Positions 1,546-63,315 of a stretch of 64,000 nucleotides of DNA are shown piece after piece. The DNA comes from Okamejei kenojei (lineage: Eukaryota), in contig CM069163.1 in the NCBI GenBank assembly GCA_035221665.1, forward strand, positions 17,484,001 through 17,548,000, in the 5' to 3' direction. The position numbers and the translations under genes were made by a program. How positions within the stretch are numbered: position 1 is the first letter of the stretch; each line of letters starts with the position of its first letter. Under the pieces are notes generated by a model that worked only from the letters and a program-made list of their open reading frames with translations, did not search any database and had not been told where the DNA came from.

Positions 1546-3199
1546 CTTTTTATATGAATGTTTTTAATCATAGCAGGGAGGTGTGCAGCAGCATTTCCCT
1601 TCCCATGACCTTTTCCTTTGTGTATACAGATGTTTGACAGATTCACACAGGGGACACTGTCAGGGTTAATGAGAACTAGCTGGAGAAGCCCTAACCCTTA
1701 AGCGAGGTCCAACAAAAAAAAACGTTCAATTTACTTCAGCTTTCCATTTTTAACCTCAAAGCTCTAGATTAGAAGCAAACATAACATCATTCTTAAACGA
1801 CATCATTTCCTTCAAGCAGGGGTTCCACAGACAGATTGTTATTTTAAGATGTCACTGAGTCATGGGATTGGCCATTGAGCTGCACCAGACATCTCATTAC
1901 CAACACCACATGCTCTCTCAGAATGTGACCAGAAATACCTGAGAGCCTTTGAATTCTCATCGTCTCCCCAAAGGCTAGGCTAAACTCTGGGAATCTTTCA
2001 GTATTCGCTTCTCCCCCACAACCATAAGATGATCCACACAAGCTAATAATTGGATTCCCTGACTTTTACTTTAACATCAGAACTTAAAATGTGCTGAGGA
2101 TGTTACAGTTGCATGTTTTTCTCATGAAAGAAAACATTCAATTGATATTTCACACAAAGAAAACTAAAAATAAAGGGGAGAATGGGTGCGTTGCAGGGGT
2201 GGGTGGGTGGTTCAGTGGAGTTTCTGTAATTTATTTATGCACTCCGCGGGCTCGAGGTTTCAAGGAGAACGAATTTCCGCCAAAGTTCCTCATTCTGATT
2301 AATATCCCATGACTTCCAGCTGAAATATTTCCAGTTAAGAACGGACACAATATGAGAGAAAAAAACATAACTAAATTGCTTTCTGCAGTTGAATAACCAA
2401 CAGGGACCCACGGAATAGTGATCCCAGAGGATGTTGGTAGATTTTAAACAAAGTATTACCATCATCTGGTGCGAAGTGAAATCTTCCTCACAATGGTAAA
2501 GCCCTGAATTAATAGCATGGTGGCCCCAGCACATCACACAGGCAGCTTCATGAGAGAAGGCTGCAAAACATCAAAAGGCTATAAATAGCCCTTGGGTTGA
2601 GTTTTCACAGTTTCTGAAAGTAGAATTATGGAAAAAATATGCGGCATTTACCTCACCCCTCTTGCCCTCAGGGTTTCGTGCTTCTCTGGGTGAATGTTTC
2701 TGTTCTCTGCTGTCATGTTGTGAAAATGTGATGTCGGATTTGGATATTAATTGACATTTCTATTTCTTTACTGATCGATGCAGAGATGTGGGCTGGGGGA
2801 TGGGCATCGAGATGATTCTTATCAGTGCTGGGAGGGATAAGCCAGACGGGTCTGGGGAAGCTATTCAGCAAAGTATGTGTGCATGATGTTAGAAGGGCTG
2901 GGAGTGAGTTCTAAAGAAGGGTCTTTAGCCAGAAATGTCAATTCTGTTTCTTTCCATCAAGGCTGCCAGACCTGCTGAGTTTACCCATTGTTTTCTGTTT
3001 TAATTTGTGGGGCTAATCTGCTTGAAATGGTCTTGTTAGTCTAGTAATGGTCTTGTTATTCTCTAATACCTTGCAGCTTTTTTTCCCCCCATTAAAACTC
3101 AGTCTTATGATTTAACTGAAGATTATCACTTTGGGTAATAGTGTGAAAGAAATGGTATTAGATCATCTACCCTTTTGTACCTCTGTTCTAAACCTTCTG

Positions 3200-3500
3200 A
3201 AAACGGGCCCTTTGGTCCACCAAGTTCACACCGACCACGGATCACTTGTTCACACTACTTCTATGTTATCCCACTTTCTCATTCCATTCCTTGTACATGA
3301 AGGGCAATTTACAGAAGCTAATTAACTTACAAGCGTGCATTACTTCGGACGTGGGACGGAATCTGCAGTACCTGGAGGAAATCCATGCGGTTACACAGAG
3401 AACGTGCAAACTCCACACAGAGAGTTCCCATGGTCAGGATTGAACCTGGGTCTCTAACGTGGGATGCAGCATCACTGCCAACTGCACCACTGTGCTGAGC
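3200..3500 (-). mobile_element. V-SINE (HE1-like)
   Basis: Reverse of the V-domain gtgtggagtttgcacgttctc...ggatttcctccaggt. Confidence 0.75.
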
Positions 3501-3657
3501 TTCAAAAACCTTTTTCCTTAATCAGCCAGAGGCGATGCTGGTGCACTGATTTTCATCATCAGTGACTGTTTTTGCTGGGAATTGGTTCTGGAGACATGGG
3601 GAGTGATCCACATTTTTCATAATTTAAAGAACACTCCAGCTTTAACAAAGTGAATGA

Positions 3658-3900
3658 CTAAATAGCATTCCTACAGTGTTCTTGACCATTATCTATATTC
3701 CCCTGAAGTGCCCATGCACCCTCCTCACAATCTACACTGTTACCCAACTTTGTAATATCAACATTACGAAGTTTAACATTATACATATTTACCATGTCCA
3801 GATCATTGATATAGATTGTGAAAAGCTGGGCTCCCAAGTCCAAACCATGTGGACACAGACTCTAGAGCCTAAAATGACCTATTTATTTCCCCACTGTTTT
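3658..3900 (-). mobile_element. Old CR1 RT fragment
   Basis: LGAQLFTIYINDLD...DITKLG...LQGNID motif. Confidence 0.7.
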
Positions 3901-4094
3901 TGTTCATTACCCAAGGCTCAGTCCATGCCTTTCATTCCCCCAACTCCATGTACTCATTTTTTAATAATCTCTTCGCTATCAACTAAATATTAGAGTAATG
4001 TAGTTGGTTGGATTCATAATATGGTGAAGAAACAAAGGGTTTGATCTCTATAGCATTTGTTCCAGTTATGGGTTGTTCTAGGATATGTTAAGCC

Positions 4095-4345
4095 GATGAA
4101 GTACTTCAGAGGGATAGTGACTGCTGTCATACAAGTAACATAACAACAAATGTCTGCAATGTGATAATAACCAGCTGATCTGATTTTCTGAGATATTGGT
4201 TTAGTAAATATTACTCAGGACATCTGGCAAAAACTCGCCTGCTCTTTAAAGTAATGTGCATGTGATCATTTGTGTGCATATTAAGATCAATGAGGAACTT
4301 GCTTAGTGTCTCACTTGAAAGCCCAGCACTCTCTCAGAACAATTC
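4095..4345 (-). mobile_element. Ancient Deu-domain SINE (SacSINE1/AmnSINE1-like) remnant
   Basis: gcaatgtgataataaccag...aaatatt...caggacat...cctgctctt resembles the recalled Deu-domain consensus. Related pieces at about 810-940 and 53795-54400. Confidence 0.5.
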
Positions 4346-5159: not shown

Positions 5160-5589
5160 GTAGGATCATCTATGGTCTTTCTTGTGCTCAGGTCATAGTC
5201 TGGGATATGAAAACACTTACATTGTACTTCAAAACTTTGAAATGTTTTTGGAAAAACTCTACAGTTGATAAATTTTCCTTTTATTTTATGTTTCACAATC
5301 AAGTTTAATAGAGGTTAAATTGAATCAACCTGGATTGGCAACCGATGAAAGGGAGAACTGTATAAAACTTGAGTAACATTACTCAACTTTAATTACAAAT
5401 AAATGTTGCATTTGATTAGCAAATTATTTCTTCCCTAATTTAGGTCTTTAATAAAAATCTTGTTTCAATTATTCAAGTTGGATATAATAAAAAAATAAGC
5501 CCCAGAAAGAATGATAGCCACTCAGTCTACCTAATCAGTGCTGTATGAATTCTGACAATCGCTTGATTACAAAACGATTGAAGATTCTG

Positions 5590-7022
5590 GATTATAGAAC
5601 AAAAAAACAGAACACTGGAAGAACTCGGCAGATCAAGTGGCATTTGTGGAAGTGAAAAATGCAAGTTAACATTCTTGGTTAATACCCTACACTTGGGCAT
5701 GAGAGGGTAGAAGAAAGCTTGCCAGTTTGTGGCAGTATAATAGTGAAGGACTGAGATGGGTTAGAGGCTGGTTGGCGATAAGGGGGACCAGAGAGCGAGG
5801 GAATAATTTTCAGATGAAAACCAGGTGGAGAGGGAATGGACAAGGTGAACAAAGGGAGTAAAAAATACTAGATTGACATCTGTGTATGTGTAGAGAAATA
5901 CTAGGGGAGTGGGTTAGCTAAAATGGAAAAATTCAATGTTCATGACTTGTTTATAAGCTGCATAAGTGGAATTGAGATGTTGTTCTTTCAATTAGCGTTT
6001 GGCCTTTCCTTAGCAATGGAGATGTCCAAGGAGAGATTGGTCAAAGTGGGAAGCAGAGTTGAAATAACATGCAATCGGAACTTGAGATGGCTTTTGCAGT
6101 CATAATGCAGGGGGCTTCCCAAAATGGTTGCCTAGTTTATGCTTGGTTTCATCTGTACCTCTTTAGACCAGTGTACATGATGTGGCTTCCTTTACATTGG
6201 TGAAACCAAGTATATGCTAGGCAGTCATTTTGCAAAGCACGTGCACTCTGCCTGTAATAGTCATCCTGAGCTTCATACTGTATGTCACTTTAGCTTTCCC
6301 TTTCACCTCGACATTGTCCTTTGTCCTTTCACCTCGACATTGGCGTGTCTGTCCTCAGCCCTCTCTATTGCTACGGAGAAACCAAATGCAAATTGGAAGA
6401 ACTGTATCTCCTATTCCATTTGGGTAGTTTACGTTAAATTTGTCAATCTCACCCCTTGTGTTCTCTCCCACACACATTTGTCTATCCACTGAGTTTCATC
6501 TTTCTTTGTCCATCATTCCCATTCCCCCACCTACTTGGTTCCACCTACCCATCGTCTCTCCTCATCTAGTTTCACCTATCACCTACCAGTCTCTGCGCTA
6601 CCCTCCCACTCCTTCCACTGGCTTTATCTGTCCATCATCCATTCCCCATCTTGTTCTATCCATTGCCTACCAACCTCTATCCCACCCCTCTCCCTTGTTG
6701 AAGGGAGAACCTGTGGAACAATCCAGGATGACTTTTGTAGAAAAAAAAGGAATTCACGTTGGACTCATTCAGGTTATCAGGGCCCTTCTAAGACCATCAT
6801 CATATTCAAAGCGGCCACTAATTCCAACATTTAACCAGTTAAAATGACTCAAAAAGTCAATAGCTCTCTGATAGAGGGTTTTGACTTGAAACGTCAACTG
6901 TTCAACCCACCACCCCCCCACCATCACACCTCTTATGCAGTCGATGCCGATTGACCCGCTGAGTTCTTGCAGTGCATTGTTTGTTGCACGTGATTCCAGC
7001 ATCTGCAGTCTCCTGTGTCTCC
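5590..7022. mobile_element. Old Penelope-like element with an inverted (fold-back) arrangement
   Basis: About 5590-6150 is an antisense 3' region. About 6160-6700 is sense, including GFLYIGETKYMLGSHFAKH (GIY-YIG). Sense tail at 6865-7022. Confidence 0.7.
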
Positions 7023-7341: not shown

Positions 7342-7518
7342 TGTTTAAGAAGGAACTGCAGATGCTGGAAAACCAAAGGTAGACAAAAATGCTGGAGAAA
7401 CTCAGCCGGTGAGGCAGCATCTATCAGTCTGAAGAAGGGTTTCGACCCGAAACTTTGCCTATTTCCTTTGCTCCATAGATGCTGCCTCACCCGCTGAGTT
7501 TCTCCAGCATTTTTGTTT
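7342..7518. mobile_element. Short fold-back PLE-derived element with hammerhead-like core
   Basis: Inverted arms, core CTGAAGAAGGGTTTCGACCCGAAAC at 7429, flanking direct repeat ACCAGCAAGTTACAA (7327-7341/7519-7533). Confidence 0.8.
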
Positions 7519-9169
7519 ACCAGCAAGTTACAAGTTCAGTTTCCTCTTTGGCATTAACTACCTCAACCAAAAGGAAAGCTCCAATTGAATTTGATGTTTT
7601 TGGGTTAGCAAGGGAAAATCGGAGGGAATTTCTATTTCTGAGACACAAATAAAATGCTCTGATGCAAAGTACATCAACAGTGATCATTGAACACTGGGAT
7701 CATGCCGAGATATCTCCTCGCCGTACCCTCCCATGCCACACAGTCTGTAGACCGCTGGGAATCGAAGCAGGTATTAGACCAAATGTGTAGGAAGGAACTG
7801 CAGATGCAGGTTTAAACCGAAGATAGACACAAAAAGCTGGAATAGCTCAGCGGGACAGGCAGCATCTCTGGAGAGAAGGAATGGGTGATGTTTCGGAGGG
7901 TCACTTAGGCCCTCAAACCGTCATTGCAACAGGTTATAGGTCATTTGTTTGTTGACTTCATCCACTCCCTTTGTTTTTTTAACATTTAATACCCCTGCCC
8001 AATGAAAAGATATTGGTCTCAGTTTTGACATTTTCATTTGACCCTAAACTCATTTTGGAGAGAGCCCCTGATTGTCGCCACCAACGAGGTCTTGGTGAGG
8101 TACCTGGAACCACCCAGGAACCTGAAACTGCACCCCAGTGAACAATTCAAGTCTTTTAGAATTGGGGAGGGAGAGAGGAGCAGAAACTGACAGGGGCAAT
8201 GATGGAATGTGCATTTGTTGCATAGGTCATTGCAAACCATAATCCTTTTAGACACGTGGAATTGCTCATCCTTCCTTTAATAAAATGAAACTGCTGATTA
8301 TGGGGAACCCAATTGTATGAATAAAATTGCTCTGGGGTCATTTTCTACTGCTGTGCTGTTGATGGAGAAACCCTGGTCCCCGAAAGGACCATTGCATAAG
8401 GACACCTCCGTGACTATCTGAGACTAGCTTAGAAGGGGCATCTTTGTTAGCATGGATGAGTTGGGCTGAATTTGTGCTGTAATATTATAACCTGGTTACA
8501 ACAGCTAGAATAAAAGAACAAATAGATCAGACAAGCCCAAAGATATAATGGTCAAGCTTAGATGGCCTAAACCAACCATGGTCCAGTCACATTGGTGTCA
8601 GTTAACTACTTCCAGATCAATTCAGGTCAATCAAGAGTTACTCTGGTCTTTTCGTATCTATGTGGGTGAACCCATACTAATCTTACTACACTCATATACT
8701 CCTTGTAGGATATAATTCTGGAATTCTGGTGATCTACCCATTATTGGTCAACGCGGATGTACCCTGGACAGATCTCCTTCCATGCTTTATCCTCTTGGAT
8801 TCTGGACCAATTCTATGAGAATCAGTAACCATTCAGAAACTCATCCAAATGGCCTTGCCTCAGTTGGGCTGGAATATTAATGGAAATGTGGGTTATGAGT
8901 TCTCAATAAAGATTTGGCAGGTTCTGCTTACATTATGGAATGGGTGAAGATTTTCCCAAGGCCCAATAACCTGCTCTCTTTATATCTTTCCAATCCTGGT
9001 CCCTTACCATTTGTGGTGATGCATTAATTTACCTGGCGCCCACACTCTGAAATTCCTGCCCCACATTCCTGCTTCTCTCCTTTAAAATGTAGTTCTTTAA
9101 CCAAACTCCTCCTCGAGTCATTACTGGGTCATTCAGTTTTTCTCTAAGTATCTGTTAAGCATTCTCTAA

Positions 9170-10413: not shown

Positions 10414-12138
10414 GTAGGTTGGATATGCTTTTGTCTATTTTTTCCCCCTCTCCCCTATGAGCTTCTTGGCTTTGTGAAGTTAACCTAATCCAGCTGTTGC
10501 TTTGAATAAAATTGCATTTTCAGTCTGGGGTGGAATTTAGGATTCACTGTTTAACTGGCTTTCAGCTTAAGTTTTCTTCACTTCCCTCTTTGTTTCTGAA
10601 ACAACTTTCGTTCTCACTGGAAGGATTTGGTGCGTCTGTAGCGATTCCATCACTGTTGCAGATTGAGCATGCCGCTGTTTTTAAGTATAACAACTGCCAA
10701 AGTTTGTTTAACTAGCCATAAGTTGAAAGTTCCTTGTGTCTGCTGCTGTGAGAAAGCTTCTGGGTGCCCAATTAAATAATAGTCAGGTTGGATGAAGGCT
10801 GTCAAAAAGTGAGAGTCCGTAATCTGTTAGAAGAGGCCCGGAGCAATAATTAGAGGTGGACTGAGAATGTCAAAGATAGCTACAATTGTGACACATTGGG
10901 TCAGTGCATAAAATGCACGACAGTATTAAAGAGACAGGCACGCAAGAGCAGACAGTAAGACATCTACATGGAAATGATCAGAGAATGCAGAAAGACACTT
11001 AAGAGAGAGAGGAAATGAATGCAAGTTAGGAAAACATGCCAGGTAAGGATAAAAGAACAATTGAAAAGATAAGGAGGATGTAGAACACAGAGCATAGAAC
11101 AGTACTGCAAAAGAACAGGCCTTTCGGCCCACAAAGTCTGTGCCTAACATGATACCAAGACTAACTCTTATCTGCCAAGTAGATCAAATGAAAGGCATAG
11201 AGAGGAAAAGGGAACTAACTGGTTGCTGAATTTTCCCCTAATATGCTGTTTGCGTTTGTTAACTGTTGTCTCAGATCCCTGATCTCTGCACCAATTTTCG
11301 TAACTTCTCTGTATTAGGCCAACAATGTTCTGTTAACAGAATACATGAATGCACCTCAACTTTGTCATGTGGTCTTCCTTAGACTGAAGCAGAAGCTGTG
11401 TCGTGCAGCACTGAGCTCGGTTGATAAGATCTGATCCTGGTTTCTCCCTAGTCGGCTGATTTTAACTGTAACAGAATTAGCCTAATTATTCTGGACTCAT
11501 TGGGGATCTGATTCCTCAAAGTTTCTGACATCTGGAGATTCCTGCTGGATGAGGATGGGAGATGCCCAACTGAGATCCCTCCAAGGGTCAGTATTAGCTG
11601 GACCGATGACAAGGATGACCACCAAAGGCAGCAAAATTGTATCCAAGCAAATAGCCAGTACTTACAGAATAAAGTGATGGGATTGCGATAGAGAGGGCCG
11701 ATATTCTAGGGATTACAATTTCAGAAATGTCTTCAAATGATGCAGGAGAGAATGGTTTTTATCAAAGGTGAATAAGGAATATTATGCTAAAAATTGATTT
11801 TAACTGCAGTGTCTTCATCGACATGAAACAAAACCATTGGATTTGTGCAATGCCTTCAATGGAATAAAATATTGCAGAGCATTTCACAAGGAAGTCATCT
11901 GATAGAATTTGTCATTGGCCTCACAGAAAAATTGGGGAGAATGTTTAATTAAAGATTAAAGTTTTGAGGGACTATTTCAAAGAAACTGAGAAGTATGAAT
12001 GATAGAGGTGGTGCATAGGTCTATTCTGACCTTGGGCGGTGTCTGTGTGGTGTTTGCATGCTCCTCCTGTGATTGCCGCTCTTTTCCCCGGGTGATCTGG
12101 TTTCCTCCTACACCCTAAAGGCGGATGCTTGATAAATT

Positions 12139-12401
12139 AAAGGTAGACACAAAATGCTGCAGTAACTCAGCGGGGCAGGCAGGATCTCTGGAGAGAAGGA
12201 ATGGGTGAAGTTTCAGGTAGAGACCCTTCTTCAGACTGATGTCAGGGGAGTGGGCTCCTCTTGACACCAGTCTGAAGAAGAGTCCCGACCCAAAACGCCA
12301 CCCATTCCTTCTCTCCAGAGATGCTGCCTGTCCCGCTGAGTTACTCCAGCATTTTCTGTCTACCTTCGATTTAAAGCAGCATCTGCAGTTCTTTCCTACC
12401 C
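12139..12401. mobile_element. Short fold-back PLE-derived element inserted in a V-SINE
   Basis: Two opposed cores (about 12205-12236 on -, 12272 on +). TSD TGCTTGATAAATT (12126-12138/12402-12414). Confidence 0.8.
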
Positions 12402-13368: not shown

Positions 13369-13495
13369 GTCTGAAGAAGGGTCTCGACCCGAAATGTCGC
13401 CTATCTCCTTCGCTCCTTAGATACTCCTGCACCCGCTGAGTTTCTCCAGCCTTTTGTGTACCCTCGATTCTCCAGCATCTGCAGTTCCTTCTTTA
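13369..13495 (+). mobile_element. Short PLE-derived element (single arm) with hammerhead-like core
   Basis: CTGAAGAAGGGTCTCGACCCGAAATGTC at 13371. TSD GTACTTTATAA (13358-13368/13496-13506). Confidence 0.8.
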
Positions 13496-20439: not shown

Positions 20440-20665
20440 CCGTGCCAAGCTGCAAATGCTGGAGCTGGAATCTTGTGCAAACAATAATCTTCTGATGGAA
20501 CACAGTGGATCAGGCAGCATCTGTCTAAGGAAATTGACACACGATGTTTCAGGTTGGGATTCTTCTTCTAAAGAAGGATCCTGACCCGGACAACGCCCTC
20601 TGTCCATTTCCTTCCACAAATGCTGCCTGATCCACTGTGTTCCACCAGAAGATTGGTTTTGGCAA
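20440..20665. mobile_element. Older fold-back PLE-derived element
   Basis: Arms ggaacacagtggatcaggcagcat / atgctgcctgatccactgtgttcc with degenerate cores between them. Confidence 0.65.
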
Positions 20666-20884: not shown

Positions 20885-21656
20885 GTAAGTCCCTCTCCTA
20901 TTTATCTGAAAGGCAACTAATGTACCCTGAGAAATGTGACGATTACTATCTGGTCCTAATAATCTCAAAATAGTCTTTCTGACCTCAATAACAGGATTTA
21001 GATTTCAGTTAAAAAACACTTCAACAGAATAGTCATTAAACTAGAATGTTAGAGTGAATTATGTTGATTTTCCCCTTTCCCTGCAAGGGATGGAGTCGCC
21101 AGAACAAAAGGTCTTATGCTCACATCCAATGAGTCTGTTGAGGTGAAACAACTAAACTGTGTTGAGTCAATTTGGTTCAATGGCCGAGGAGTAATGGGCT
21201 TAACCATGGAGTAAATATGGGGATGAGGGAGGGGGGGAATTTTAGATGAATCATCTGCTCCTAACCATTAAGCCAATGGTGTTGGGAAGGTACTAGTTTT
21301 GGCTTGAGCTAAATACCCAATGCACAAATGAACCTTCAACACTGATCTTCAAGCTTGGGGATAACTACACGGGAGAGAAGATGGAGAATGGTTACTTGGC
21401 GTGAATTTGTCCTAAAAACTTTCAGGAGGAAACATAAATCAGCTGAAAAACTTTATAAAATTGCTTAGAATTAAGTTTGTATTGACTCCAAAGAGTGGCA
21501 AGCTTTTCAACAGCATTGCCAGGCACTTAAAATATTCATTGATTTCATTGTGTGTGCTGCAGAGCCACTCAGTCCTAACCCAGTGGCTCCACAAGGAATG
21601 GCTGCCGCAGTTAGAAAGAACATTTACGTTTGGAAAGACACAAAATGCTGGAGGAA

Positions 21657-21919
21657 ATGGCCTGTCCCACTTGGGCGACATTTGCGCGTCACGCAGATGG
21701 CGCGCGAAGATTTTGTGCCTCCCAAAATCCTGGAGCGCTGTGCATGACTGCGCGTCATTGCCTACGTCACCGTGCATCGTGCGCGAGTAATGCGTACCAT
21801 GCGTGCATCACGTGCCCGTCGCCACGCGCGTAAATGATGTCGCGTAAATGATGTGCGTCGTGACGCGTAAATGATGTCGCGTAAATGTGCGCAAATGACG
21901 CCCAAGTGGGACGGGCCCT
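21657..21919. mobile_element. PIF/Harbinger-type MITE, copy 2, nested in a PLE-derived element
   Basis: Same TIRs. Interrupts the consensus gctggagTAActcagc (flanks GAA/TAA). Confidence 0.8.
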
Positions 21920-23821: not shown

Positions 23822-23866
23822 TTGATGCTGCTGCACCCGCTGAATTTCTCCAGCCTTTTGTGTACC
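23822..23866 (+). mobile_element. Minimal 45-bp PLE-tail insertion
   Basis: TSD CTCCTTTAAGACT (23809-23821/23867-23879). Confidence 0.7.
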
Positions 23867-28944: not shown

Positions 28945-29040
28945 CAGACTGAAGAAGGATCTCGACCCAAAACGCCACCCATTCCTTCTCTCCAGAGATG
29001 CTGCCTGTCCCGCTGAGTTACTCCAGCTTTTTGTGTCTAA
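28945..29040 (+). mobile_element. Short PLE-derived element
   Basis: CTGAAGAAGGATCTCGACCCAAAAC at 28949 followed by the standard tail. Confidence 0.7.
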
Positions 29041-40162: not shown

Positions 40163-40264
40163 ATTGGAGGCAATAAGAATTAATAGGCAGCATCAACACT
40201 CATTCCATTTCATGTACAAATAAACAATTAGATATCAAGATTTCTAAAGTGGGGCATTAGATTG

Positions 40265-41040
40265 TAGAAACAAGGAACTGCAGATGTTGGGTTACAAAAA
40301 AAGACACAAATTGCTGGATTAACTCAGGTCAGGCACTTCTCTGGAGAACATGGATAGGTGACATTTCAGCTGGGGACACTTTTTCAGATTGATTGTGATG
40401 GGTGTTGATAGGCAGATGGTTGGACAAAGGCCAGAGATGAAAAAAAAAACAAAGGATAAGGATAGAAGAGTTGCAAATTGTGAAGTCAGAGGAAGGAACG
40501 TAGATGGACTGGGATAAAATAAATGGGTGCTGGTGGGACACAGGGAGGGGGCAATATGGGTGCTGGGAAGAAGGGTTTTGGTTAGTTACCTAAATTGAAC
40601 AATTCCATATTCATATTGTTGGGTTGTACACTACCCAAGCAGAATATGAGATGCTATTCCTCCTGTTTGAGTGTGGCCTCACTCTAGCAATGGAGGCGGC
40701 CCAGGCCAGACAAGTCAATATGAGAAAAAGGAAGATCAGTTGCAATGGTTAGCAATCGGAAAATCCAATAGGTCTCGGCAGACCGAGTGCAAAAGTTCAA
40801 AGAAACAGTTGCAGTCTTGCTGATGTACAGGAGGCCTCATCAGGAACACTGGATGCAATAGAGGGGGTGCACGTGAACCTCTATCTCACCTGGAAGGACT
40901 GCTGGGGTCCCTGGATGGATGTGAGGGGGGAGATACAGGGGCAGGTGTTACATCTCCTGCAATTGCAGGGAAAGTACCTGATGTGGGGTGGTTTTGATGG
41001 AAAGGGATGAGTGAACCAAGGAATTGCGGAGGGAGTGGTA
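40265..41040 (-). mobile_element. Degenerate Penelope-like element 3' portion
   Basis: Reverse complement aligns by eye with 28000-28700 (CCAGGGACCCCAGCAGTCCTTCCAGGTGAGATAGAGGTTCAC, then the tail). Confidence 0.75.
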
Positions 41041-42540: not shown

Positions 42541-42702
42541 TCCAAGAAAAGACACAAAATGCTGGAGTAATTCATCAGGTCAGGCAACATCCTTGGAGAA
42601 CATGATTAGGTGATGTTTTGGGTCGGGACACATCTTCAGACTTGAATCACCTATCCATGTTCTGACCAGCTGAGTTGCTATTTCTACAATTGTATATCAA
42701 GT

Positions 42703-42739: not shown

Positions 42740-43309
42740 AAATATACATGTATATATTGGCACCCTTCTTCAGTAAGGGGGTGAAAGATGTATAAGGGAG
42801 GTGGAGCAGAACTAAGCCAGACAAGTGATAGGTGGATAACAGCAAGAGATTAGCAGGAATCATAGGAGGGGTGTAGTGAGAGAGGGTCTCACAGAGCTGG
42901 CAGAGAGAGGAGGAGAACTTCTTCAAACAGGACAAACTTGAGAAGATTCACAGTGGAGCAGTAAAGTGGGGACACTAGGGTCTGCAGATGCCGGAATCTT
43001 GAGCAAAACACAACGTGCTGGAGTGTACTCAGTGGGTCAGGCAGCATCTGTGTGGGATATGAATAGACAATGCTTCACGTCAGGGTCCTTCCTCAGTCAG
43101 GTGTCAGCTGAGGATATTGTTTTTTTATGTTTGTTTACAAATTAATAGAAGTACACCCAAAAATCGGGCAAATCTGCTAGTCTGGCACCCTTCTAGTCCC
43201 CAGAATGTTGGATTATTGAAATATATTACATAGAATATGAAGAATATTACATAAAAAGCAAAAACACTATAGATGCTGGAAATCTGAAAAAATAGAAAAT
43301 GTTAAGTAC

Positions 43310-43917: not shown

Positions 43918-45097
43918 GTAGAAAAACCCAACAGGTCATAGAATCCTTTTATACTATCTTGTCCATTACTAATATTTTCTCATGTATGGCCCATATCCCT
44001 TTACATTTTTCTTTTCCCAGTATCTGTCCTAATGACTTTTTAATATTATAACTGTTTCTGCCTCCACCACGTCCTCCGGCAACTTGTTCCAGATATTCAA
44101 CACCCTCTGTGCGGAAAAACCTACCCCTCAAATCCTCCTGAAATGTCTCTGTTTTCACCTTAAACCTGTGTCCCCAATTATAAACTGCACTGTACTGCAA
44201 AGAAGACTGACTGTCCATCCTATTTTTCTCCCTCTTAATTTTATGAACGGGTATAAGGTCAGGCTGTATCTGTTGGGAGAGAAGTGGAGTTAATGCTTTG
44301 TGTCAAGGAACTTTCATCAGAATTGAGAAGAATTGGCAATCAAATCTGTTTTAAATAGCACAGCAGCGAGAGTGTTAGAGAGAGCAAGAGTCAAGAGTGT
44401 TTGATTGTCAAATGTACTGACAATGGAACAATGAAATTCTTACTCGCCACAGGTGTATGCAATAGTGCGCAGGCTGAGAGGCAGAGAATTGTGGAGACCT
44501 GTTGACCAGTTGATCTATCTAGAGGGGACAGAAATGGAAGGAGATGAATGAAAACAGGAGATTGAGAGAAAGAGAAAATTGTGAGAACTGCGAGATATAA
44601 AACATCGCTGATTTTGGACATTGAGATAAAGCAGAGAATGCTACAAATACTTAGCAGATATGCAACACATATGGTGGGAGGAAAACAGGATTCACATTGC
44701 AGGTTGATGAGCTGAGATCAAACTGATCAGACTGGTCACTTGAAATTGTGGAATTAAGTCCCTCAGTGCTTTGATGTGTCTTGTTGAAAAGTGAGACAGC
44801 AACGTGACTGCAGATGTTGGAAATCTGAAATAAAAAAGAAAATGCTGGAAATACTCAGCAGGACAGGCAGCATCTCCAGAGAGAGAAACAGTTGTTCTGA
44901 AATGTTAATTCTCAATTTCTCTCTACAAATACTACCGACCAGCTGAGTATGTCCAGCATTTTCTGTCTTTACGATAACTTGTATATATTGTAGGGAACGT
45001 GCTAAATTTATCCGCTGCATAGAATTGCAACAATACTTCAAACGTTGCATAGAATGATGGAGTTGGGATGTCAAATCACAACGTTACAAAATACTGG

Positions 45098-45230
45098 ATA
45101 AACAAGGAACTGCAGATGCTGGTTTACAAAAAAAAAAGACAAAGTACTGGCGTAACTCATCGGGCCAGGCAGCATCTCGGGAAAACATAGATAGGCAACA
45201 TTTCAGGTCAGAACCCTTCTTCAGACTGAT
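45098..45230 (-). mobile_element. Short PLE-derived element
   Basis: aaggaactgcagatgctgg...catttcaggtcagaacccttcttcagactga, flanked by AAAATACT repeats. Confidence 0.7.
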
Positions 45231-45613
45231 TAAAATACTTGTAAGTAGGATGTGATTGTCTTGGAATGGGTGTTGAGGAGATTCTCCAGGATGTTGCCTG
45301 GATTGGAGGTGAGCTAGTGACACTGTCACATTTAACAAGCACCAAGGAGACTGCCTGAACTAACAGCCCAATGTACCCAATAGGGGTAAATGGGATTAGT
45401 GTAGATAGGTACAACGGGTTGCATGGACATAGTGGGCCGAAGGGCCTGCGTCTGTGTGGTGTGAATTTGTGTGTGATTTCCAGCCGTCCTAAACCAACTC
45501 CAATTCTCCCCACGCACACAAGCTGCCCAGCCCTTGCACCTGTGTGAGCGGTCATCCCGGGCTGTCCCCACCTTTGTGCAATGGGGCAGAGCCACAAGGG
45601 CTGAGGGCAGAGA

Positions 45614-48105: not shown

Positions 48106-51100
48106 GGTATGGCCAAGGTAGTAATGAATAATGAAGTGAGCTAAATCGGATGAGTATTGAACTTCCAGAATCCCACCGCACCTCCTTGTCACCCTCTTTC
48201 TCCTCTAACCCCCGCTTAATACAAGTGGAAGTGGCCGAAGGGTCATCGCCCTACAGTTAGTAAATGAGCCGCTTTACAAATAACTAAACACAACACGTTG
48301 ATGGCAATGGGTAGGTGGTGGTTACCAAGCAAGAGACCCTCCAGTTGTATCCCTCTGCGTTGGGCAGCTTTATATCGAAACACAAAGGAAGGAACTCTGC
48401 GGGCCAGGCAGCATCTGTGGGGGAAATGGATAGACAATGTTTCGGGGCGGATCCACTGTTCCTTCAACACTTTGTGCTTTGCTCAAGATCCCAGAATCTG
48501 CAGTTCCTTCACTTAGATTTCTGGTCCGGCCAAGACACATTCAGCCAGATCTGGATAATTGTATGGATAGTCCCTCCCTGGTTAAACGATGACACTCGGG
48601 GACGATCAGCAGCGAGATAAGGCACCAGGGAACCGCGGTCCCTCACTGCGGGAATCTTTGAACCAGTCCCACGCCCATACTTGGCAGAAGAAACAGACTT
48701 GGAGGAAATAGTTCGGAGCGAGCACTTGTCACATCAGGAGGAAATGCCGTGACAGAGGGAGCGTAAAAAAGCCCGCTCGCTCAGAGAGATGAACATAGGA
48801 TGCGTGCTTTGGAGATTCTGGCATGTTACTGTATGGAAAGTGCGAAGTAGACGGATGCTCAGTCGCTTCCTTGTAATGTGACTGAGCTAATGACGGCGTG
48901 GGGCAGCTGGATTAACGTGGGGAATGAAAACACCGCTCAATAGCACATTCCCTTCTCCTTGCGCCAGTATTCAATATTAATATAATGTTAAATCTTTGCT
49001 TTCGTTTTGTTAAGGGTTCTGATGACGACTATTGTCCTTCAGCGCCAGACAAATAACGATTCCCTAAGGTCAGCATCGAGGTGGCCAACAACAAGAAAGT
49101 CTGCCCTTTCCTCATAAAGAAGGCCTAAATTCAGAGATTGACCCAGTCCATGGGACCACAGATTTAGAATACCGATCTATGACTATTTCATTCCCCAGAG
49201 CCCCCCACCCACCCAACCCTGCCTAGGAAATACCTGTTCACAGCTGGATCTGTTCAGTGTAACACTTGCCCTTGGTCAACCCCTACCATGCTGGTGTTAA
49301 TGCTGATAGGCTATTTCATCGCAGCTGTGAGTCAGAGGTCTTCGTCCCAATTACACTCAGATGCGTTTTCAAGCAAGGATCAGCGGAGACAACCGCCTAT
49401 CTGCTTCCCTTCTGCAATCTATCACCAAAATACATACACAGACACACAACACAGATTAGGAATTGGGCAGTTACATCTGTGTCTCAATGATTCAGCTCCA
49501 TCAGCAGTATATTTATAAATAGGCCCGGGGGGGGGGGGGGGTTGGAGGATATACTGCAAATTAGCGTATTTGCAATGTAATCTCGTTCTTTCTAAATGTG
49601 TTCTTTATAATTGCAACGTGCACTGCACATTTTTTGCTCCAGGAAAACATTATCCGCTTTATTGATCACACATTGAAATGCAGACACTTGGCCACTCACG
49701 CGCCATTTCAGGCTCCATTAGAAAACCGATCTCATACAGAGAGAAGGTAGAAAAACAGAGAGAGCCGCTGCCGCCTCCCACCACCCCCCACCCACGCTGC
49801 TTTTAACCGCACAGGAGCAAGTTCTAAAAAGTTTCCAAAAATTGACCTGTGGAAATGAATTCACATGTAAAGATGAAAATATAAAATCTGAATTGCCATG
49901 GGAGTACAGAGAATGTTTACCGTTTCCAATCCATTGGAGGCACGCTGGAATCAATCTATATACAATGTGACGGGACAGCTAATGGATCTGTAATCTAGGC
50001 CGCCCATTCCAATATATATGTTTCTCAAGCACGGAGGCAAGGGCATGGCTCTTTAAATCAGTTGCCGGAACATCATTTTGTTCCCAATTTTAAATAATGT
50101 GCCGAATACTTGAAGTGAATTCACGTTCACTTTCACGAGGTGGAGGGCGGCAGAAATAACTGGTGTCCATTTCAACCCTCGGGGAGAAAAGAAAGGTGCA
50201 CAAATGATAAGAGAAACTGCCTCTGAGAAGATGACGTAACTAATAAATAACGATGAGCAGTCTCGGTTTAATAGACGAGTCAGGTGCCGGGTACAGACCC
50301 CATTACAATAACAGACCATCACCTCCGTTGAAACAGCGATTGGGGAAATGGCACCACGCTCATTTAGCTGCTACTCGCCGGCAATGGTTTAGAATCCTCA
50401 TTGAAACACCCAAAGCAACGACAGATCTAAAAACGCAATCAGCTGTGCGATTGTAGCGGGGAAACGTCATTTTTTGTTGCTGCTGCGTGTAATTCCTCCC
50501 TTTTTTTTTTAGAGAAAGGAGTGGTTGAAATCTAGCCAGTGATGATCTGGGAAGGCGCTGGCGCTGAGACAGCAAACTAACTCAGAGACAAGTTTCGAAA
50601 GGGATTGTGACAAATACTCGGGGCGGGAGATAATGGCAGAGATATGGATCAACAAAAGATAGCCGGGGGGGTGAGGAGAGGTTGGACTAAAATTGGATGG
50701 GCCGAACAGTCTCTAGCGAGAGCATGTTTTAAAAAATAAAATAAAATATTGGATCCAAAGACCAATTTAAGACAAAGAATGTGTTAAAATTCTGGTGGTA
50801 ATCTGGCCTCAGGCCGCGTGCTGTTTTCTTGTAAAATAGACACCAAATGCTGGAGTAACTCTGTGGAACAGGCAGCGTCTCCCTCTGAGCCCCAGAGATG
50901 CTGCTCGTTCCGCTGAGCTACTCCAGCATTTTTGTGTCTATCTTTGGTGTAAACCAGCGTCCGCAGCTCCTTCCTACATATTTCGTCCGCTATTGTCTTT
51001 TTTTGTGCGTAAGCTGTCCCATTGTTTAAGCTGTGCGGGACAGGAAAGCACGGCGGCTGCGAGAATGACATTGAAGGTCCGAGCGAGCAAGCAGCTGTAA

Positions 51101-51389: not shown

Positions 51390-51398
51390 TGTCTAGTC

Positions 51399-51955
51399 CA
51401 GTCTGAAGAAGGGCTTCGGCCAGAAACGTTGCCTATTTCCTTCGCCTCATAGATGCTGCTGCACCCGCTGAGTTGCTCCAGCATTTTTGTCTACCTTCTA
51501 GTTCAAAGTACCCTTCCCCACACCTGCCCTAGCCCCCACCCCCGCATGCCTGAAGGCAAATAGATAGTAGGTAGACAAAAGTGCTGGAGAAACTCAGCGG
51601 GTGAGGCAGCATCTATGGAGTGAAAGAAATAGGCGACGAAATAGAAACGTTGCCTATTTCCTTCGCTCCATAGATGCCGCCTCACCCGCTCAGTTTCTCC
51701 GGCACTTTCGATTTTCCAGCATCTGCAGTTCCTTCTTAAACGCCAAATAGATAGTGCTGTAGGAAGGAACTACAGATGCTGGTTTACACCGAAGATAGAC
51801 GCAAAATGCTGGAGTAGACACAGCGGGCCAGGCAGCATCTCTGGAGAAAAAGGGTCTCTGAAGTGTCTGAAGAAGGGTCTTGACCCGAAACGTCACCTAT
51901 TCATTTTCTCCAGAGATGCTGCCTGACCCTCTGAGTCACTCTGACATTTTGAGCC
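51399..51955. mobile_element. Cluster of three short PLE-derived elements
   Basis: Cores at 51403 and 51867. Fold-back units at 51569-51743 and about 51758-51950, bounded by three copies of CAAATAGATA. Confidence 0.8.
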
Positions 51956-57200: not shown

Positions 57201-60200
57201 TTACTACCGATGACCCCATGTTATCTTTGTACCCCCTCCCTCCCTCCCCACCCCCACCATGTTGGTCCCTGCTCCATGCTCTTGATGTTTCCAACATTTC
57301 TTACTCCAAACCCCAGCCTGTATTTTTGTTCCCCACCATCCCACGTCCTTGCTTCCCACTGCAAGGATTCTTTGTGCCTCTCCAGAGTTGAAGCTCTGCT
57401 CTAAGTCAGTGGAAAAGCTGAGTTAAAATAACAGACTAGTAGGAGGCAGGTTCTACAAGGTTCAAAATTGATAATTTTCTCAGTTGATAATTTTCTAGCA
57501 GATTAATGTAACATCTCACATCTACCCACACTAAAATCTGAGTTGCAGGGGGCTCCTTACTTTTCAGCACTTCATGAGGAAATGTTTAGTGGGAGCGGTG
57601 GGTTGGGGCTGGTGGATGGGGATTAACAGTGCAGTTATGTAATGGATAGGGAGAAGTGGTTTGCCAGGGACAGATAAATGGATGGCCAGGGACATTGGGG
57701 ACACACCCAACCACCCTGTCACACAAGCCAGGCGTTGGCAGTGTGGATTCCTCAAAGGTTGTACATCAGCCACTTCAGATCACAAACATAATGGAAACAA
57801 ATCAAATGGGACTAGTTTAGATGGGGCATCTTTGTCGGCATGGACGAGTTGGGCCAAAGGGTCTGTTCCTGTGCTGTCTGACTTTAAGTCATCCTTGGCC
57901 TTCCTAGGAAGGTCGGGCAATGGTGCGAATAGATGGTGGGGGAATCTCCTGTTGTAGATGTATCCCTGATTTGGTTTACCTCCATGTTTAGTCACTGTGA
58001 GGCTCATGCACTGAGAAGCAATGGAATTGGTGAGAGGATGGAAATTTGATATGAAACACCCCTCGCGTTTGATTTGTTTGCAGCCTGCTCCAGGCGGCAC
58101 AGCGTCCCATGTGCTACACAGTGTCAGATGCAACACCATCTTTAACGCTGTAGTTTAAAGTATAGACGTGATAAAAGTGTAATTACACCTGAGAAACCAA
58201 AGGCTTCCTGCAGCTTTCGAATACCAAGCCTGTTCCTTAATAAAATATGCTGACGGGGTGGGCTTGCCCCCTCGCTCTGTGCACAGGGGCTGGTAGGGGC
58301 AACATGTAAACGCTGTAAATCACCATGGTCCCAATGCTTCACTGCAACCTCCTGCTGCAGTCGCCAGTCTTACATTGTATGTATTTTCATAGACAAGTAT
58401 ACTCAGACACACCCACATCGGCACAAGCATATAGATAAACACACACATATAAACTCATTCTAATCTGCATAACACTCCTGCTGAAGCGTAGAACATAAAT
58501 GAGAGAAAGTCCTGCTTGGTAATTCAACGACTGTCGCTGCTCAACCATTTTACTTCATTCCGATTCATTATAGTTAGGCATTGGAGCCCCCCCCCCCGCC
58601 TCTTCTCATTCTGTATCTCAGCCGCGGTGGGGAGGAGCAGGTGAGCTGTGTGCAGGGGGTGAGATGGGGAAAGCGCCCATGTGAAAGCTCGCAGTCAAAC
58701 GCATTGTGAGTAGCTGCAGCCGAACTAGACATTACCTCATCTCCCTGTAGCCTCACGGGCACCAAGCACCGGGGGAAGGGGAGGGGAGGGAGGGAGCCGC
58801 ATCAATCCAGCCTACCAGGTGCCCGAGTGCTAATACAAACGCATCTCAATCAATCGACATGATTAATATTTCGATCAGCAGCCAACACAATAATATACCT
58901 TTTGCGGCATTTAACGCTCAATTTTCCCGTAATTTATGTTCAGTATGTGTAAAAAAAAAAATGCACAGCCATAAATGTAAAATGTAAATAAGCTGCTATA
59001 AATAAAAAACGAAGGACTTCACACATTTAAAACAAACCGATGCTGATATTACTAATCTCCTGCTGCTCTGGGGCCGGGGCTGGTTTTCTTTGGCCCATCC
59101 CTCCTCTCCCCTGGATTTGCACAGCTAGCTTTCTTCCTACTTTGTCCCCAGTTCACCCTCAACCAAATTACTAAAATGGTTATCATCTTACTGATTTACG
59201 GTGTGCAAATTCAGTTCCTCCACATTATAATAAAGATTACCCTTGAGAATTATGTTGTTGGCTGTCAGGGACATGAGGGTCCTCTTGAAAGGCACCATTC
59301 AAATAAAAGTTTGTCCTTTCCACAGACGCCACCCAACACGCTCGCAATTCATGGAATAAATGGGACTCTAATTAGGGAATAACATTCCACTATACCCTTA
59401 ACTACAGGCTCGAGTCCCACCTCCCATACGTTCCCATAAACTATGAATTAGAGCTGTGTGTGTACACTATATGGTAATGAATGCTGAACTGCAATGGCAC
59501 ATCATTAAGCAGGGCATGTAATTATCAGCATTGTGTTCTCTTATTTAGTCTTGCCCCTGATTGTGAAGAGCAAGGAGAGGGGCAAGCTGATAAACAATTA
59601 ATTAGAGTTTACAATTAAAAGCGCCAGGAATATTAAAACTGCTCAAATAATGTTACCGGGGAGGCAGCAAGATATCATCAGTCAGAGATCATTAAATGTT
59701 AATCATTTCAAAGCAGGACAGATCAAAAAAGATGGGTGAAGGTTTTGCAGCAGAAAGCTGACGCTTCTGTCCTGCTGAACAGTCCAGTCTCGTGTGCATG
59801 ACACATCTGATGATTCAAAGATGACACAAAGCTGGGTGACAGTGTGTGTAGTCAGGATGATGTACAGAGGCCCCAGGGGTGTTGGGAAGGTAAGTGAAAG
59901 GGCAAGGCCATGGCAGAAAATGTGAATGCATCCTTGTTGATATCAATAAATAAAAGATATATAAAATATATTTGTTGTGAGAGATTGAAAGATTGGTGTT
60001 CAGAGTCTGAAGAAGGGTCCCAACCTGAAACATCGTCTGCCCCTTCACTGCACAGATGCTGCCCGACCCACTGTGTTCCTCCAACAGTTTGTTATTTTTG
60101 CTCAGGTGTTCAGAGGCACCTGGGTGTCTATGCCCATGAAAGATGACTTGTTGATATGGAAGGCAAGCAGGGAGGCAAATGGTATATTATGTACAGTACT

Positions 60201-60359
60201 GGTCTCCCTAGAGGAAGCGCTGCAATAACTCACCAGATTGATACTTGGGACGAGGGTGGAAGTTTGTTCTATTAGGAGAGATCTAGTAGACTAGGCCTAC
60301 ACTCTCTCGCTTAAAAGAGTGAGGGATAAATATAAAACATTATGACATGGCTTGACAGG

Positions 60360-60950
60360 GTAGAGTCATTGAACTATACACTACGGAAATAAGACCTTTG
60401 AGTCAACTTGTCCACATGCTGACCAAGTTGCGAAACCAAGGTAGTCCCACTTGCTTGCTCCTGACCCATATCCCTCCAAATGTTTCCTTACCATGTACCT
60501 TCCAAATGTCTTTAAATATTGTAATTCTACCACTTCCTCTGGCAGCTCGTTGCATTATATCTATCGCCCTCGGTGTGAAAAAGTTGCCCCCAGTTCTTGA
60601 TAAATCTTTCCCTGCGCACTTTAAACTCATGTCCCCAGGTTCACGATTCCCACTGGATACAAGACTGTGGTTATTCGCCTTATCTAAGCCCCTCGTGATT
60701 TTCTATAGCTCTATCAGGTTACGCAGCAGCTTCCTATACTATGAGAGAAAAAGACACAGTCTATTTAGCCTCTCCTCATAACTCCAGACCTAATAACATC
60801 CTTGTATCTTTGTTGCACATTTGCCAGTTTCATAACAGCCTTCCATTAACAGGGCAACCAGATCTATACAAAGCATTCCAAAATCCTAACTCCTGTACCC
60901 AGTGATTCCAACAATGAAGGCAAGTGTGCAAATACTCTTCACCACCCTGT
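60360..60950 (-). mobile_element. CR1 3' fragment (older family)
   Basis: Same family pattern as 52020-52420. GNFFTPRAIDI-like translation. Confidence 0.7.
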
Positions 60951-62380
60951 CTACGGGTCTTCACTTGTGTGGAACGATGATATTGTGGCATCCAGCCACA
61001 CACAATGTAAACAGCTGAGATCTTGTGACATTGGGACACAGGTGATACCAGGCATCATTTTATTGTTCGAAATCCATGCTTATAGTATTGACTTCATTCA
61101 AGCTGGCCTTACACAGCTGGCTGCCTGACAAAGGTAAGGCTGCTGGGAAGATTAATTTTTAGAGAAGAGTGACAATAATCGCCCTGATGGCACGCAACCA
61201 CGTTGCATCTCTAATGTAATAAAACATCCTTGAAGGAACATAATCAGGTAAAATACCGTGCTAGTGGGCAATGACCAAGAACTTGGGCAAAGAGGTATCT
61301 TGTAATTTACTTCTTAAATGAGGAAAGAAAGCTGAAACGTTGAGAAAGGGAATCTTAGGGTGAAACCTGAGCTTTGTTGGAGTGTTCTAGGACATGGCTT
61401 TGCACAAGAGATTAATGTTGGAGAAATGCGATCACGGAGAGCTGGAGAAAGTTACACTGTTAAAGTGAAGGCAATCAGAGTGGAAAGAAAGGTCTCGACC
61501 CAAAACCTCGCCTATCCATGTTCTCCAGAGATGCTGCCTGACTTGCCGAATTACTCCAGCACTTTGTGTCCTTTTGTGTATTAACCAGCATCTGCAGTTC
61601 TTTGTTTCTAAATCTGAGGTGATGTGTATATGTGATGGGAATTTAAAAACTCAGGTGAGTGCTTGCTTTCAATCCTATGTTTTATAATATATAAAGTCTA
61701 ATTCCAGAGTTGAACTAAAACACAAAATACTGGAATTACTCAGTGGGTCTACCAGCATCTACAAGATAGATTTATAGGTTTTTTTCTGCGCCTGCAGCGT
61801 TTTGTTTTTGCGATTTCCTTGCGGATTTATTTAGTTCTTGATCTGTTTTGGGCACGGAAACAATGATGTATATATTGGAGGGTTAGTGTTACTGATCTAA
61901 CGTGTTTTTAAACAATTTTTCCCATCCCATTCCTTTATTTGCTCCCATCCTGTCTTAAAAGCACCAATTTGGGCAGAGCTAGGCTGTAAGAAGTGCTCAC
62001 GGGAATGAACTAGGCTAACTGTCCTTTCCAGGAATCACTACTCTGCCTTAGTTTTGATGTGTCTAGCACACCTTGTAGCCTTAATGTTTCTTTCAGTTCC
62101 ATTTCCACACCCACCCTCCTCTCATTTTGTCTTTTCTCCTGTTCTGCCCATTTGCTCATGTATGTCTGGCCTCTTTTTGTCTTATTCTCTGTCTTACAGT
62201 CGTGTAACTAGCCTTTCTCAATTTGTGCAACGTCCTTCTACACACCATCCCTCTCTCTTTGTCTTCCTGTCCTTAGAACCGGCAGTTTAAACCTTACATT
62301 GTACCAGTACCCCTGGGAATCTCGAAGAGCAGAGTAAAAATATAATATGACATCACCAGCTGACCTGCATCCGCACCGCG

Positions 62381-62404
62381 GTGTGTGTGTGTGTGTGTGT
62401 GTGT
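62381..62404. repeat. (GT)n microsatellite
   Basis: Directly visible. Confidence 0.95.
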
Positions 62405-63157
62405 ATTTGCAGTCGCAATAGCCAAACACATCAAATTAGCACAAAGGAATCAAAAGCAATTTCACACAGACAAACCCTCCAGGGCTGGCTAGTAAATTAG
62501 GAGCAAACAGAATGAGTTTGGAAAAAAAACTATCACCATGATCATGAGCACTGGCGGGGCTAATTATAAGAATATTTTAACTTTCATGTTATATGAATTG
62601 ACTGCTAAACCTCAGTCACATATATAGCAAGGCCACTGCTCCCTCATATACCACACTCACATATTACTGCTCACTACACCACACTCATTCTGTGGAGTAC
62701 GCCCCTCATCACACTGTCCAATGCAACATGCCTCCATTTACACCCTAACCTCCAGCTATATTTAAAAAGCCGCTTGAAACTCCTCTTCATGCTGACAAGC
62801 ACAGATGCAATATAGTCTGTGGCAAATTCAGATGAGATAATTGAAACAAAATGGCCATGGGACACACTTTGAAGTATTTTTCCCCCACAAAAGACAGTGA
62901 CGTATCAAATTTTCCAAAGTGCAAGACAACATGTTACACGGGGGAGTTTTATTTGGGACACATTCTTAGTTATTTGTGACGCCTCATGTTAAAACGTATG
63001 ACAGATACTGGAACATATTCACCTCTCTGCCTTATTGCACCTTGATATATGGGCACTATTTAAGGGCACTAAATAAATGCTGAATAATACCATGTGATTT
63101 GTTGTCTCCTGAGTAATATTTAAAGCATGTTCCTTTATTCCCAAATGCAGGAACATA

Positions 63158-63315
63158 TAACTGCAGATACTGATTTAAACCAAATATAGACATAAAGTAC
63201 TGGAGGAACTCAGCGGGCCAGTCCGAACAAGGGTCACGACCCGAAACATCACCTATCCTTTTCCTCCAGAGATGCTGCCAGACCCACTGAGTTACTCCAG
63301 CTCTTTGTGTCTATC
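63158..63315. mobile_element. Short fold-back PLE-derived element
   Basis: Same arms as the other copies. Degenerate core CCGAACAAGGGTCACGACCCGAAACATC at about 63223. Confidence 0.7.

Follow-up and report, generated by a model that had tools for sequence, protein, structure and literature searches.

Hammerhead-bearing repeats in Okamejei kenojei

The window analysed here, a stretch of 64,000 nucleotides of Okamejei kenojei (GenBank assembly GCA_035221665.1, contig CM069163.1, positions 17,484,001 to 17,548,000 of the forward strand), contains many copies of a short repeat that carries a minimal hammerhead ribozyme core and also forms the 3' end of broken open reading frames (ORFs) of Penelope-like elements (PLEs). 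Searches with nhmmer and profile hidden Markov models (HMMs) built from copies in the window, whose seeds match by construction, identified 43 copies (arms) at 30 loci, together about 4.5 kb or about 7% of the window. The density is about one locus per 2 kb, and if the window is typical the family might make up several percent of the genome. Arms were selected by hand from the nhmmer results: two weak hits were kept for their core letters or partner arm (44256-44321, E 0.7, and 42647-42679, E 0.5), and seven were dropped (near 13900, 22250, 26500, 30280, 42770, 43280 and 46380). With the reversed or complemented window the best E-value was only 0.84-0.88. A 29-nt motif, allowing at most 3 mismatches, had 11 matches in the window versus 0 in 100 shuffles, and was exact at one site alone (51865-51893); a core-motif scan of bacterial and archaeal genomes gave 0 matches.

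An earlier, sequence-only reading of the window had listed about 20 such elements. All 20 coordinates carry a copy (numbers refer to the C of CUGA on the plus strand and to the lower end of the core on the minus strand); the count proved too small, and neither the tail and the head-to-head pairs nor the target-site duplications (TSDs) and two further ORF-linked copies had been noted.

Unit anatomy and subfamilies

Positions in the unit are given relative to C3 of the hammerhead (position 0), with cleavage predicted between +27 and +28. The unit measures about 105 nt. In order, it comprises ATCAGT, the hammerhead core, a linker of variable pyrimidine sequence and a conserved block (AGATGCTGCC...GCTGAG...CCAGC), and it ends T-rich near +91. 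Roughly half of the arms extend some 35 nt further into a tail that ends near +128, giving two common 3' ends about 35 nt apart. Nearest-neighbour identity divides the arms into about five subfamilies, and arms of different loci are on average 70% identical. No convincing coding match to unit or tail was found by tblastn with 17 named shark and ray proteins, and the ORF start could therefore not be placed.

In the tail, CAGCATCT reverse-complements the conserved block AGATGCTG at unit positions +45 to +56 (e.g. 12320-12330 and 12378-12388). The two start sites of reverse transcriptase (RT) proposed below may therefore be tied to one RNA stem, although this stem was not predicted by RNAalifold.

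The hammerhead core and its decay

The PLE minimal hammerhead has been described as a U-rich flank, helix I, CUGANGAH, a G...C helix II, GAAAN, a palindrome and NUH (PMC4209133). Judged by its letters, the window motif is a match to this consensus at each feature, which bears out the earlier assignment to the minimal type I hammerheads of PLEs. Shared features are the CUGANGAH core (as CUGAAGA 30 times in the published supplement), the bulge before stem II, the G10.1-C11.1 pair, the palindromic 15.2/16.2 without a loop 3 and the pyrimidine-rich 5' flank; stem II, with 4 bp, lies at the short end of the published range, and no chondrichthyan was seen in the published alignment of 56 motifs from 40 species, as covered here (PMC4209133).

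Among the 21 core-bearing copies, the majority residue is correct at all 11 invariant core positions. All 11 are intact in seven copies, and every canonical feature is kept by one (51865..51896, plus strand, C3 at 51867), with stem I GU/AC, CUGAAGA, a bulged A, stem II GGGU-CUUG-ACCC, GAAA and the palindromic ACGU; cleavage is predicted between 51894 and 51895. All 21 copies have C or T at H17, and an unpaired A stands between A9 and 10.1 in 20 of 21; this extra A, remarked on earlier, is a known feature of PLE hammerheads. The closing pair 10.1-11.1 is GC in 11 copies, GU in eight and otherwise in two. ACGU is the majority at 15.2-16.2, without loop 3, and departures from it are mostly CpG transitions. 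Helix I, of at least 2 bp, is paired in 83% of cells and varies by A/G versus U at 1.1 and C/U versus G at 1.2, with U-A in two old copies. Its shortness had been regarded as a weakness, but is instead a known PLE feature, shared with the 2-bp helix I of PLE hammerheads from Drosophila virilis, Culex and Oikopleura (PMC4209133). Variation between subfamilies falls where a hammerhead tolerates change. The stem-II loop variants reported earlier (CTCG, TTCG, CTTG, CACG and CCCA) are all present, as is the stem variant, at 51403, reading GGGC/GCCA. All eight copies that had been singled out as good exist, but those at 12272, 28604 and 28949 have G12>A and that at 51403 lacks the G10.1-C11.1 pair. 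Similarly, the CTGATGA at 44314-44320 (minus strand) is present, yet in the least intact core, with G12>A and A15.1>G; because N7 is free, CTGAAGA is just as canonical.

The copies have decayed at CpG sites (G12>A in seven and 16.2 G>A in six of the 21 core copies). The ten non-CpG core positions are conserved in 189/210 cases (90%), compared to 228/308 (74%, p = 5e-6) in the linker and 585/683 (86%, p = 0.13) in the downstream block; loop II is conserved in 54/84 (64%). An earlier core-versus-downstream p of 9e-5 was inflated by HMM clipping and was set aside in favour of 0.13. Covariation in stem II is borderline at best, as 25/500 and 19/500 shuffles reach the observed pairing and score and only 2 double changes occur. 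RNAalifold gave no consensus pair on the 21 core copies and 5 pairs on 18 tail-bearing arms, a poor signal because the copies have decayed. An Rfam covariance-model scan of the window returned no hammerhead family among 31 matches with E up to 10, presumably because these models need a closed stem III. Nearest-neighbour energies, which ignore the tertiary core, do not favour a catalytic dimer (-5.7 vs -22.9 kcal/mol).

Linkage to Neptune-type reading frames

The earlier tie of the repeat to a GIY-YIG element holds. A 5'-truncated Neptune-type PLE ORF end (27621..28498, plus strand; post-RT region, CxxxxCxxC linker and GIY-YIG, frameshifted near 28383) is followed by a pyrimidine-rich 3' untranslated region (UTR) and a hammerhead unit with G12>A and without tail (28499..28697, plus strand), at whose last position the element ends. 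A second broken GIY-YIG ORF fragment (40587..41039, minus strand; 66% DNA identity to the first) is followed at 40264..40586 (minus strand) by its 3' UTR, a hammerhead unit whose core runs from 40387, and a tail. The third, older ORF-linked copy (5577..6160, minus strand) comprises a GIY-YIG remnant at 6150-5920, UTR, and a degenerate unit with tail at 5690-5577; its inverted arm (6160..6700, plus strand, right end approximate) contains a GIY-YIG remnant and pyrimidine-rich UTR, with no unit detected. The three ORF-linked copies fall in three different subfamilies. In one of these, the short copies 7429, 51403, 51638 and 30088 share 88-93% identity with the ORF-linked end at 28604 (93% for 7429). 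A weak fourth GIY-YIG remnant lies at 29417-29503 (minus strand; tblastn E 0.08-0.4), downstream of which no hammerhead unit was found.

The GIY-YIG domain of the first ORF matches PF01541 with E 3.6e-4 and 21.2 bits, slightly below the 22.6 cut-off. The top protein matches of this ORF are from elasmobranchs, i.e. Mobula (66%) and whale shark (63%), with shorter ones from Leucoraja and Rhinoraja, and its longer homologues join an RT domain to GIY-YIG. The GIY-YIG motif is preceded by CNRKKCCTC, a Cys-rich linker. An extra Zn-finger motif between RT and endonuclease is described as common to Neptune and Nematis (Craig 2021), and by its residues the linker motif fits either of these. Since the RT core is absent from all fragments, the clade is not fixed by RT phylogeny; ORF linkage, linker motif and protein matches agree with the Neptune-type origin, in an elasmobranch, that had been proposed.

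Single copies and target-site duplications

Flanking duplications of 13-15 bp scoring at least 9 were found at seven of the 30 loci, compared with 1.5% among some 1500 random pairs (p = 3e-7); four further loci have weaker flanking repeats of 6-10 bp, and the remaining loci none. Single copies with a TSD are 13369..13495 (plus strand; 13-bp TSD, start at -2, tail and unbroken invariant core), 60006..60104 (plus; start at -1, 11-13-bp TSD) and a 43-bp copy without ribozyme at 23824..23866 (plus; 93% identical to the 13369 copy, 15-bp TSD). Shorter flanking repeats accompany the tailed copies at 6866..7021 (plus; 8 bp), 45098..45231 (minus; invariant core intact, 8-10 bp) and 61481..61610 (plus; core broken, 8 bp imperfect). 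Further tailed single copies lie at 7788..7896 (minus; truncated inside the core) and 42969..43105 (minus). The others are an old copy with a longer stem I (AGUU with AAUU) at 2907..3004 (plus), a copy at 21590..21990 (minus) that is split by an inverted-repeat element of about 270 bp (21656-21925), a G12>A copy at 28941..29039 (plus), an old partial copy with CTGATGA and an otherwise broken core at 44256..44324 (minus), the stem-II variant GGGC/GCCA at 51398..51496 (plus) and a short copy without ribozyme at 61714..61761 (minus). The copy at 28941 differs in subfamily from its neighbour at 28604 and the spacer between them is unique; a tandem-dimer reading of 28604/28949 and of 51403/51867 was rejected, as these neighbours belong to different subfamilies and have unrelated spacers.

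Head-to-head pairs

Thirteen of the 30 loci are head-to-head pairs, with the 3' ends of the arms outward. The tail is present on exactly one arm in 11 of the 13 pairs (p = 0.011), or in ten if pair W is counted as double (p = 0.046). All 13 junctions differ, and in nine of 11 measurable pairs arm-to-arm identity is above the 90th percentile of non-pair identity. In pairs D (7345..7521), Z (51760..51955), d (63151..63315), V (48373..48510) and T (44804..44970) each arm holds about 20 nt or more that are absent from its partner. Neither arm is therefore a fold-back copy of the other, and simple fold-back was rejected for these pairs, whose sequences would point instead to two separate priming events. 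In the same pairs the tailed arm is the 5'-shorter one. Thus pair D consists of a minus arm from +45 with tail and a plus arm from -4/-6 with core and without tail, flanked by a 15-bp TSD (7327-7341/7519-7533). In pair Z, which has a 15-bp TSD, the tailed minus arm starts at +34 and the plus arm, carrying the canonical core, at -2; pair d has a minus arm from +56 with tail and a plus arm from -1/-4; the tail is on the minus arm in T and on the plus arm in V.

The tail is also on the minus arm in pairs H (20449..20664), O (36907..37089), N (33077..33262; core internally deleted) and M (29985..30160; both arms truncated inside the core, 13-bp TSD), and on the plus arm in pairs Y (51570..51739; 14-bp TSD common to pair Z) and W (50835..50976; possible partial tail on the minus arm). 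In pair F (12121..12397) both arms have a core and start 17-20 nt into the UTR, with a full tail on the right and a partial one on the left. Pair Q (42548..42678) has no tail, and its plus arm is short and internally deleted. A single master palindrome for pairs M and Y was rejected, as their junctions differ and their tails are on opposite arms.

Pairs Y and Z (51555-51967) are independent insertions of different subfamilies into one target, where the 14-15-bp site is present three times, suggesting target-site reuse; their tails, which point towards one another, make up an additional hairpin at 51716-51782. Several inverted pairs (7377-7527, 30030-30149, 51592-51694 and 51817-51937) match plant miRNA precursor models with E down to 6e-9, though far short of the gathering scores. 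Identity as miRNA was rejected, as all Rfam miRNA scores are below gathering and those at the repeat loci are caused by the inverted arms; such hairpins are a likely source of false miRNA annotations and, if transcribed, of double-stranded RNA.

5' ends of the copies

Scored by eye, 5' ends range from within the ORF to +57, and 20 of the 43 arms begin at or downstream of C3. None starts at 1.1 (+28) or ends at H17 (+27), the nearest starts being 1-2 nt upstream; the template was therefore not ribozyme-cut RNA. Among 28 partner-bounded arms, seven of the 11 that reach -1 end at -10 to -1 (p = 1.5e-4 under a constant stop rate), or five of nine when two ambiguous junctions are excluded (p = 0.008); the interval was picked post hoc, and among the singles those bounded by a TSD are skewed towards short copies. 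The -10 to -1 spot reads TCAGTCT and follows a pyrimidine tract plus CAG. We take TCAGTCT to fit the initiator consensus, which would count in favour of a self-transcribed short element (see below). The cluster may mark the 5' end of the RNA, or an RT stall at the C-rich UTR.

The pyrimidine tract plus CAG resembles the splice acceptor at the intron end that abuts helix I in D. virilis (PMC2377424). Published PLE hammerheads from Adineta, Takifugu, Xenopus, Cotesia, Camponotus and Culex likewise show a pyrimidine run plus AG before or in helix I (PMC4209133), and a splice acceptor at the Yn-CAG spot may be general among PLE hammerheads.

Origin of the copies

We consider it likely that the copies are 5'-truncated or solo terminal-repeat insertions of autonomous Neptune-type PLEs, scattered as truncated or inverted pieces, with the PLE minimal hammerhead in the terminal repeat. 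They would be dead-on-arrival insertions from several Neptune-type subfamilies of different age, the unit of about 105 nt corresponding to the element's terminal repeat (pLTR) and the optional extension of about 35 nt to the PLE tail. The anatomy, the ORF linkage in three subfamilies, the identity of short copies to an ORF-linked end, the two common 3' ends, the TSDs, the tail asymmetry of the pairs, the wide range of 5' ends and the CpG decay are observed and speak for this origin, whereas the mode of priming and the activity of the ribozyme are inferred as follows. The RT-GIY-YIG protein would cut target DNA with a stagger of 10-15 nt, and cDNA would be primed at one of two start sites, the unit end or the tail end. 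Synthesis would mostly end after 45-140 nt, rarely reaching the ORF. Priming would occur on both strands of the target in about 40% of events, and microhomology or filler would join the resulting two cDNAs head to head. The ribozyme would be copied as a passenger, because the template is uncleaved RNA, and then decay neutrally; that of the source element probably cleaves solely as a dimer and with protein help. The model draws on the purified Anolis PLE protein, which has been reported to cut and extend both strands, to use uncleaved RNA, to start at two sites framing the tail, and to be needed for ribozyme cleavage (PMC11167929).

Several points weigh against this origin. The window holds no full-length element or direct pLTR pair, and the source element and pLTR boundary are therefore unseen. 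Two subfamilies lack an ORF-linked member in the window, and a significant TSD is absent from 23 of the 30 loci. The mechanism is, by analogy, borrowed from a Poseidon-clade element, and head-to-head repeats have been proposed to arise by self-priming on an antisense template (PMC3846280). Finally, the 5' ends are uneven, clustering by eye at -10 to -1, as a defined short element would also give.

In a more specific version, which we consider rather unlikely, the short copies would be run-off cDNAs: PLE RNA would begin just 5' of the hammerhead, at TCAGTCT, and RT, starting internally at the tail of the 5' pLTR, would reach the RNA end after 100-140 nt. The pairs would then record a protein dimer priming both strands with one subunit per start site, possibly on two RNAs held by the palindromic hammerhead. 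If so, such genomes would preserve, on a very large scale, a fossil record of where PLE transcripts start and of two-strand priming, and the minimal hammerhead would serve in part as an RNA dimerisation signal. Naiad elements invert without having a hammerhead, which weakens the hammerhead as cause of the inversions.

The sequence-only reading had favoured a separate, retrozyme-like non-autonomous family. A defined short element of about 105-140 nt from stem I, self-transcribed and mobilised in trans by Neptune proteins, is in our view unlikely, even though the 5' ends cluster at -10 to -1 (with the post hoc choice noted above), short copies outnumber ORF-linked ones 27 to 3, and pLTR sequences are described as able to act in trans (PMC3846280). 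The clustering is seen in each subfamily, its ends being scattered across 10 nt, all 13 junctions are different, upstream flanks share nothing save among ORF-linked copies, and short and ORF-linked copies are intermingled by identity. A separate family is further disfavoured by the lack of tandem units and of starts at the cleavage site, by the ORF-linked members in three of about five subfamilies and by the high identity of short copies to an ORF-linked end.

Solo pLTRs could remain where the two direct pLTRs of a full-length insertion have recombined, and a third, inverted pLTR could leave pairs. This is improbable in view of the 30 loci, at none of which two direct units are kept, of the three ORF-linked copies, which are plainly 5'-truncated, and of pairs M, T, V, W and Y, in which the truncation of either arm falls within the unit. 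A length of about 100 bp is moreover short for efficient recombination. TSD-flanked units with a fixed 5' edge would be explained, and the inverted-direct-ORF-direct layout is documented, with recombination suggested for solo pLTRs (PMC3846280).

Very little speaks for insertion as non-LTR (long terminal repeat) retrozymes, by reinsertion of hammerhead-cut, circularised monomers. Retrozymes reportedly derive from PLE pLTRs and are present in one sampled chondrichthyan, with a mean of 363 bp (bioRxiv 10.64898/2026.07.22.740005), but no tandem repeat of the unit is found among the 14 Tandem Repeats Finder rows for the window, six spacers between neighbouring copies share no element sequence, 0/43 arms start at 1.1 or end at H17, and the core is minimal rather than canonical in a unit of less than 150 nt. 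The palindromic loci are least credible of all as a family of miniature inverted-repeat transposable elements (MITEs), which long inverted arms with TSDs would suit but which unequal arms with differing junctions, TSDs varying from 8 to 15 bp, single arms at 17/30 loci and the identity of the unit with the end of a PLE ORF contradict.

Relation to known elements

PLE insertions have been described as marked by inverted 5'-truncated copies, a tail on one side and TSDs (Craig 2021; PMC3846280), and dispersed single hammerheads and opposite-strand pairs, mostly the former, were tied to truncated PLEs in 2014 (PMC4209133); both patterns recur here. PLEs are already known to have this ribozyme and this insertion anatomy, so that the likely origin proposed above adds a taxon. 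With Neptune-clade PLEs (Craig 2021; PMC3846280) the window copies share the C-terminal GIY-YIG with Cys-rich linker, head-to-head inversion, the tail at one end and TSDs, of about 8-15 bp here and 8-10 bp as reported. They differ in that almost every insertion in the window is of pLTR size, with a density of about one per 2 kb. Poseidon_Ac of Anolis is similar in its two RT start sites framing the tail, its hammerhead in the pLTR and its uncleaved RNA template, but belongs to another clade, and its ORF starts inside stem II (PMC11167929). Non-LTR retrozymes have a type I hammerhead, PLE ancestry and no coding capacity in common with the copies, but are described as tandem 150-450-bp repeats expressed as circles, with canonical cores in the 2020 paper (PMC7229834; bioRxiv 10.64898/2026.07.22.740005), whereas the window copies are dispersed or inverted, with ends that ignore the cleavage site.

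A literature search, with subscription journals, Repbase and Dfam outside its scope, found no published description of the family in sharks or rays, nor of the 5'-end clustering and of pairs with unique sequence on both arms; the tables of bioRxiv 10.64898/2026.07.22.740005 might list the family. The origin of PLE head-to-head repeats and the role of the hammerhead have been named as open questions (Craig 2021). The main value of the copies is mechanistic: thousands of short TSD-bounded events would test two-strand priming against fold-back or antisense self-priming, and would show whether 5' ends mark the transcript start.

Other features of the window

An element of 215-270 bp with terminal inverted repeats of about 40 bp occurs at 21656-21925 and 9166-9381 (sites 74% alike), and the first of these copies splits a hammerhead unit at a TTAA-like site; we take it to be a MITE derived from a DNA transposon that targets TTAA. 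Another abundant repeat family, whose copies are 77-96% alike, is found at 1421-1518, 18904-19156, 32125-32422, 35499-35760, 35994-36356, 47651-48022 and 53951-54181, and forms an inverted pair at 35499-36356; it seems to us to resemble elasmobranch HE1/V-type short interspersed elements (SINEs). An open frame at 43486-43935 (minus strand) presumably resembles the C-terminus of a Rex/Babar-type long interspersed element (LINE) RT. Finally, the reading frames 4474-5160 and 46396-46791 (both plus strand) contain SPSYVRSSEMYTYIGTMPR and MTDKCSLWSAISAAACCFYRGSF; we assume that they are SH2D3C-like exons, in which case the hammerhead repeats would lie in introns of that gene.

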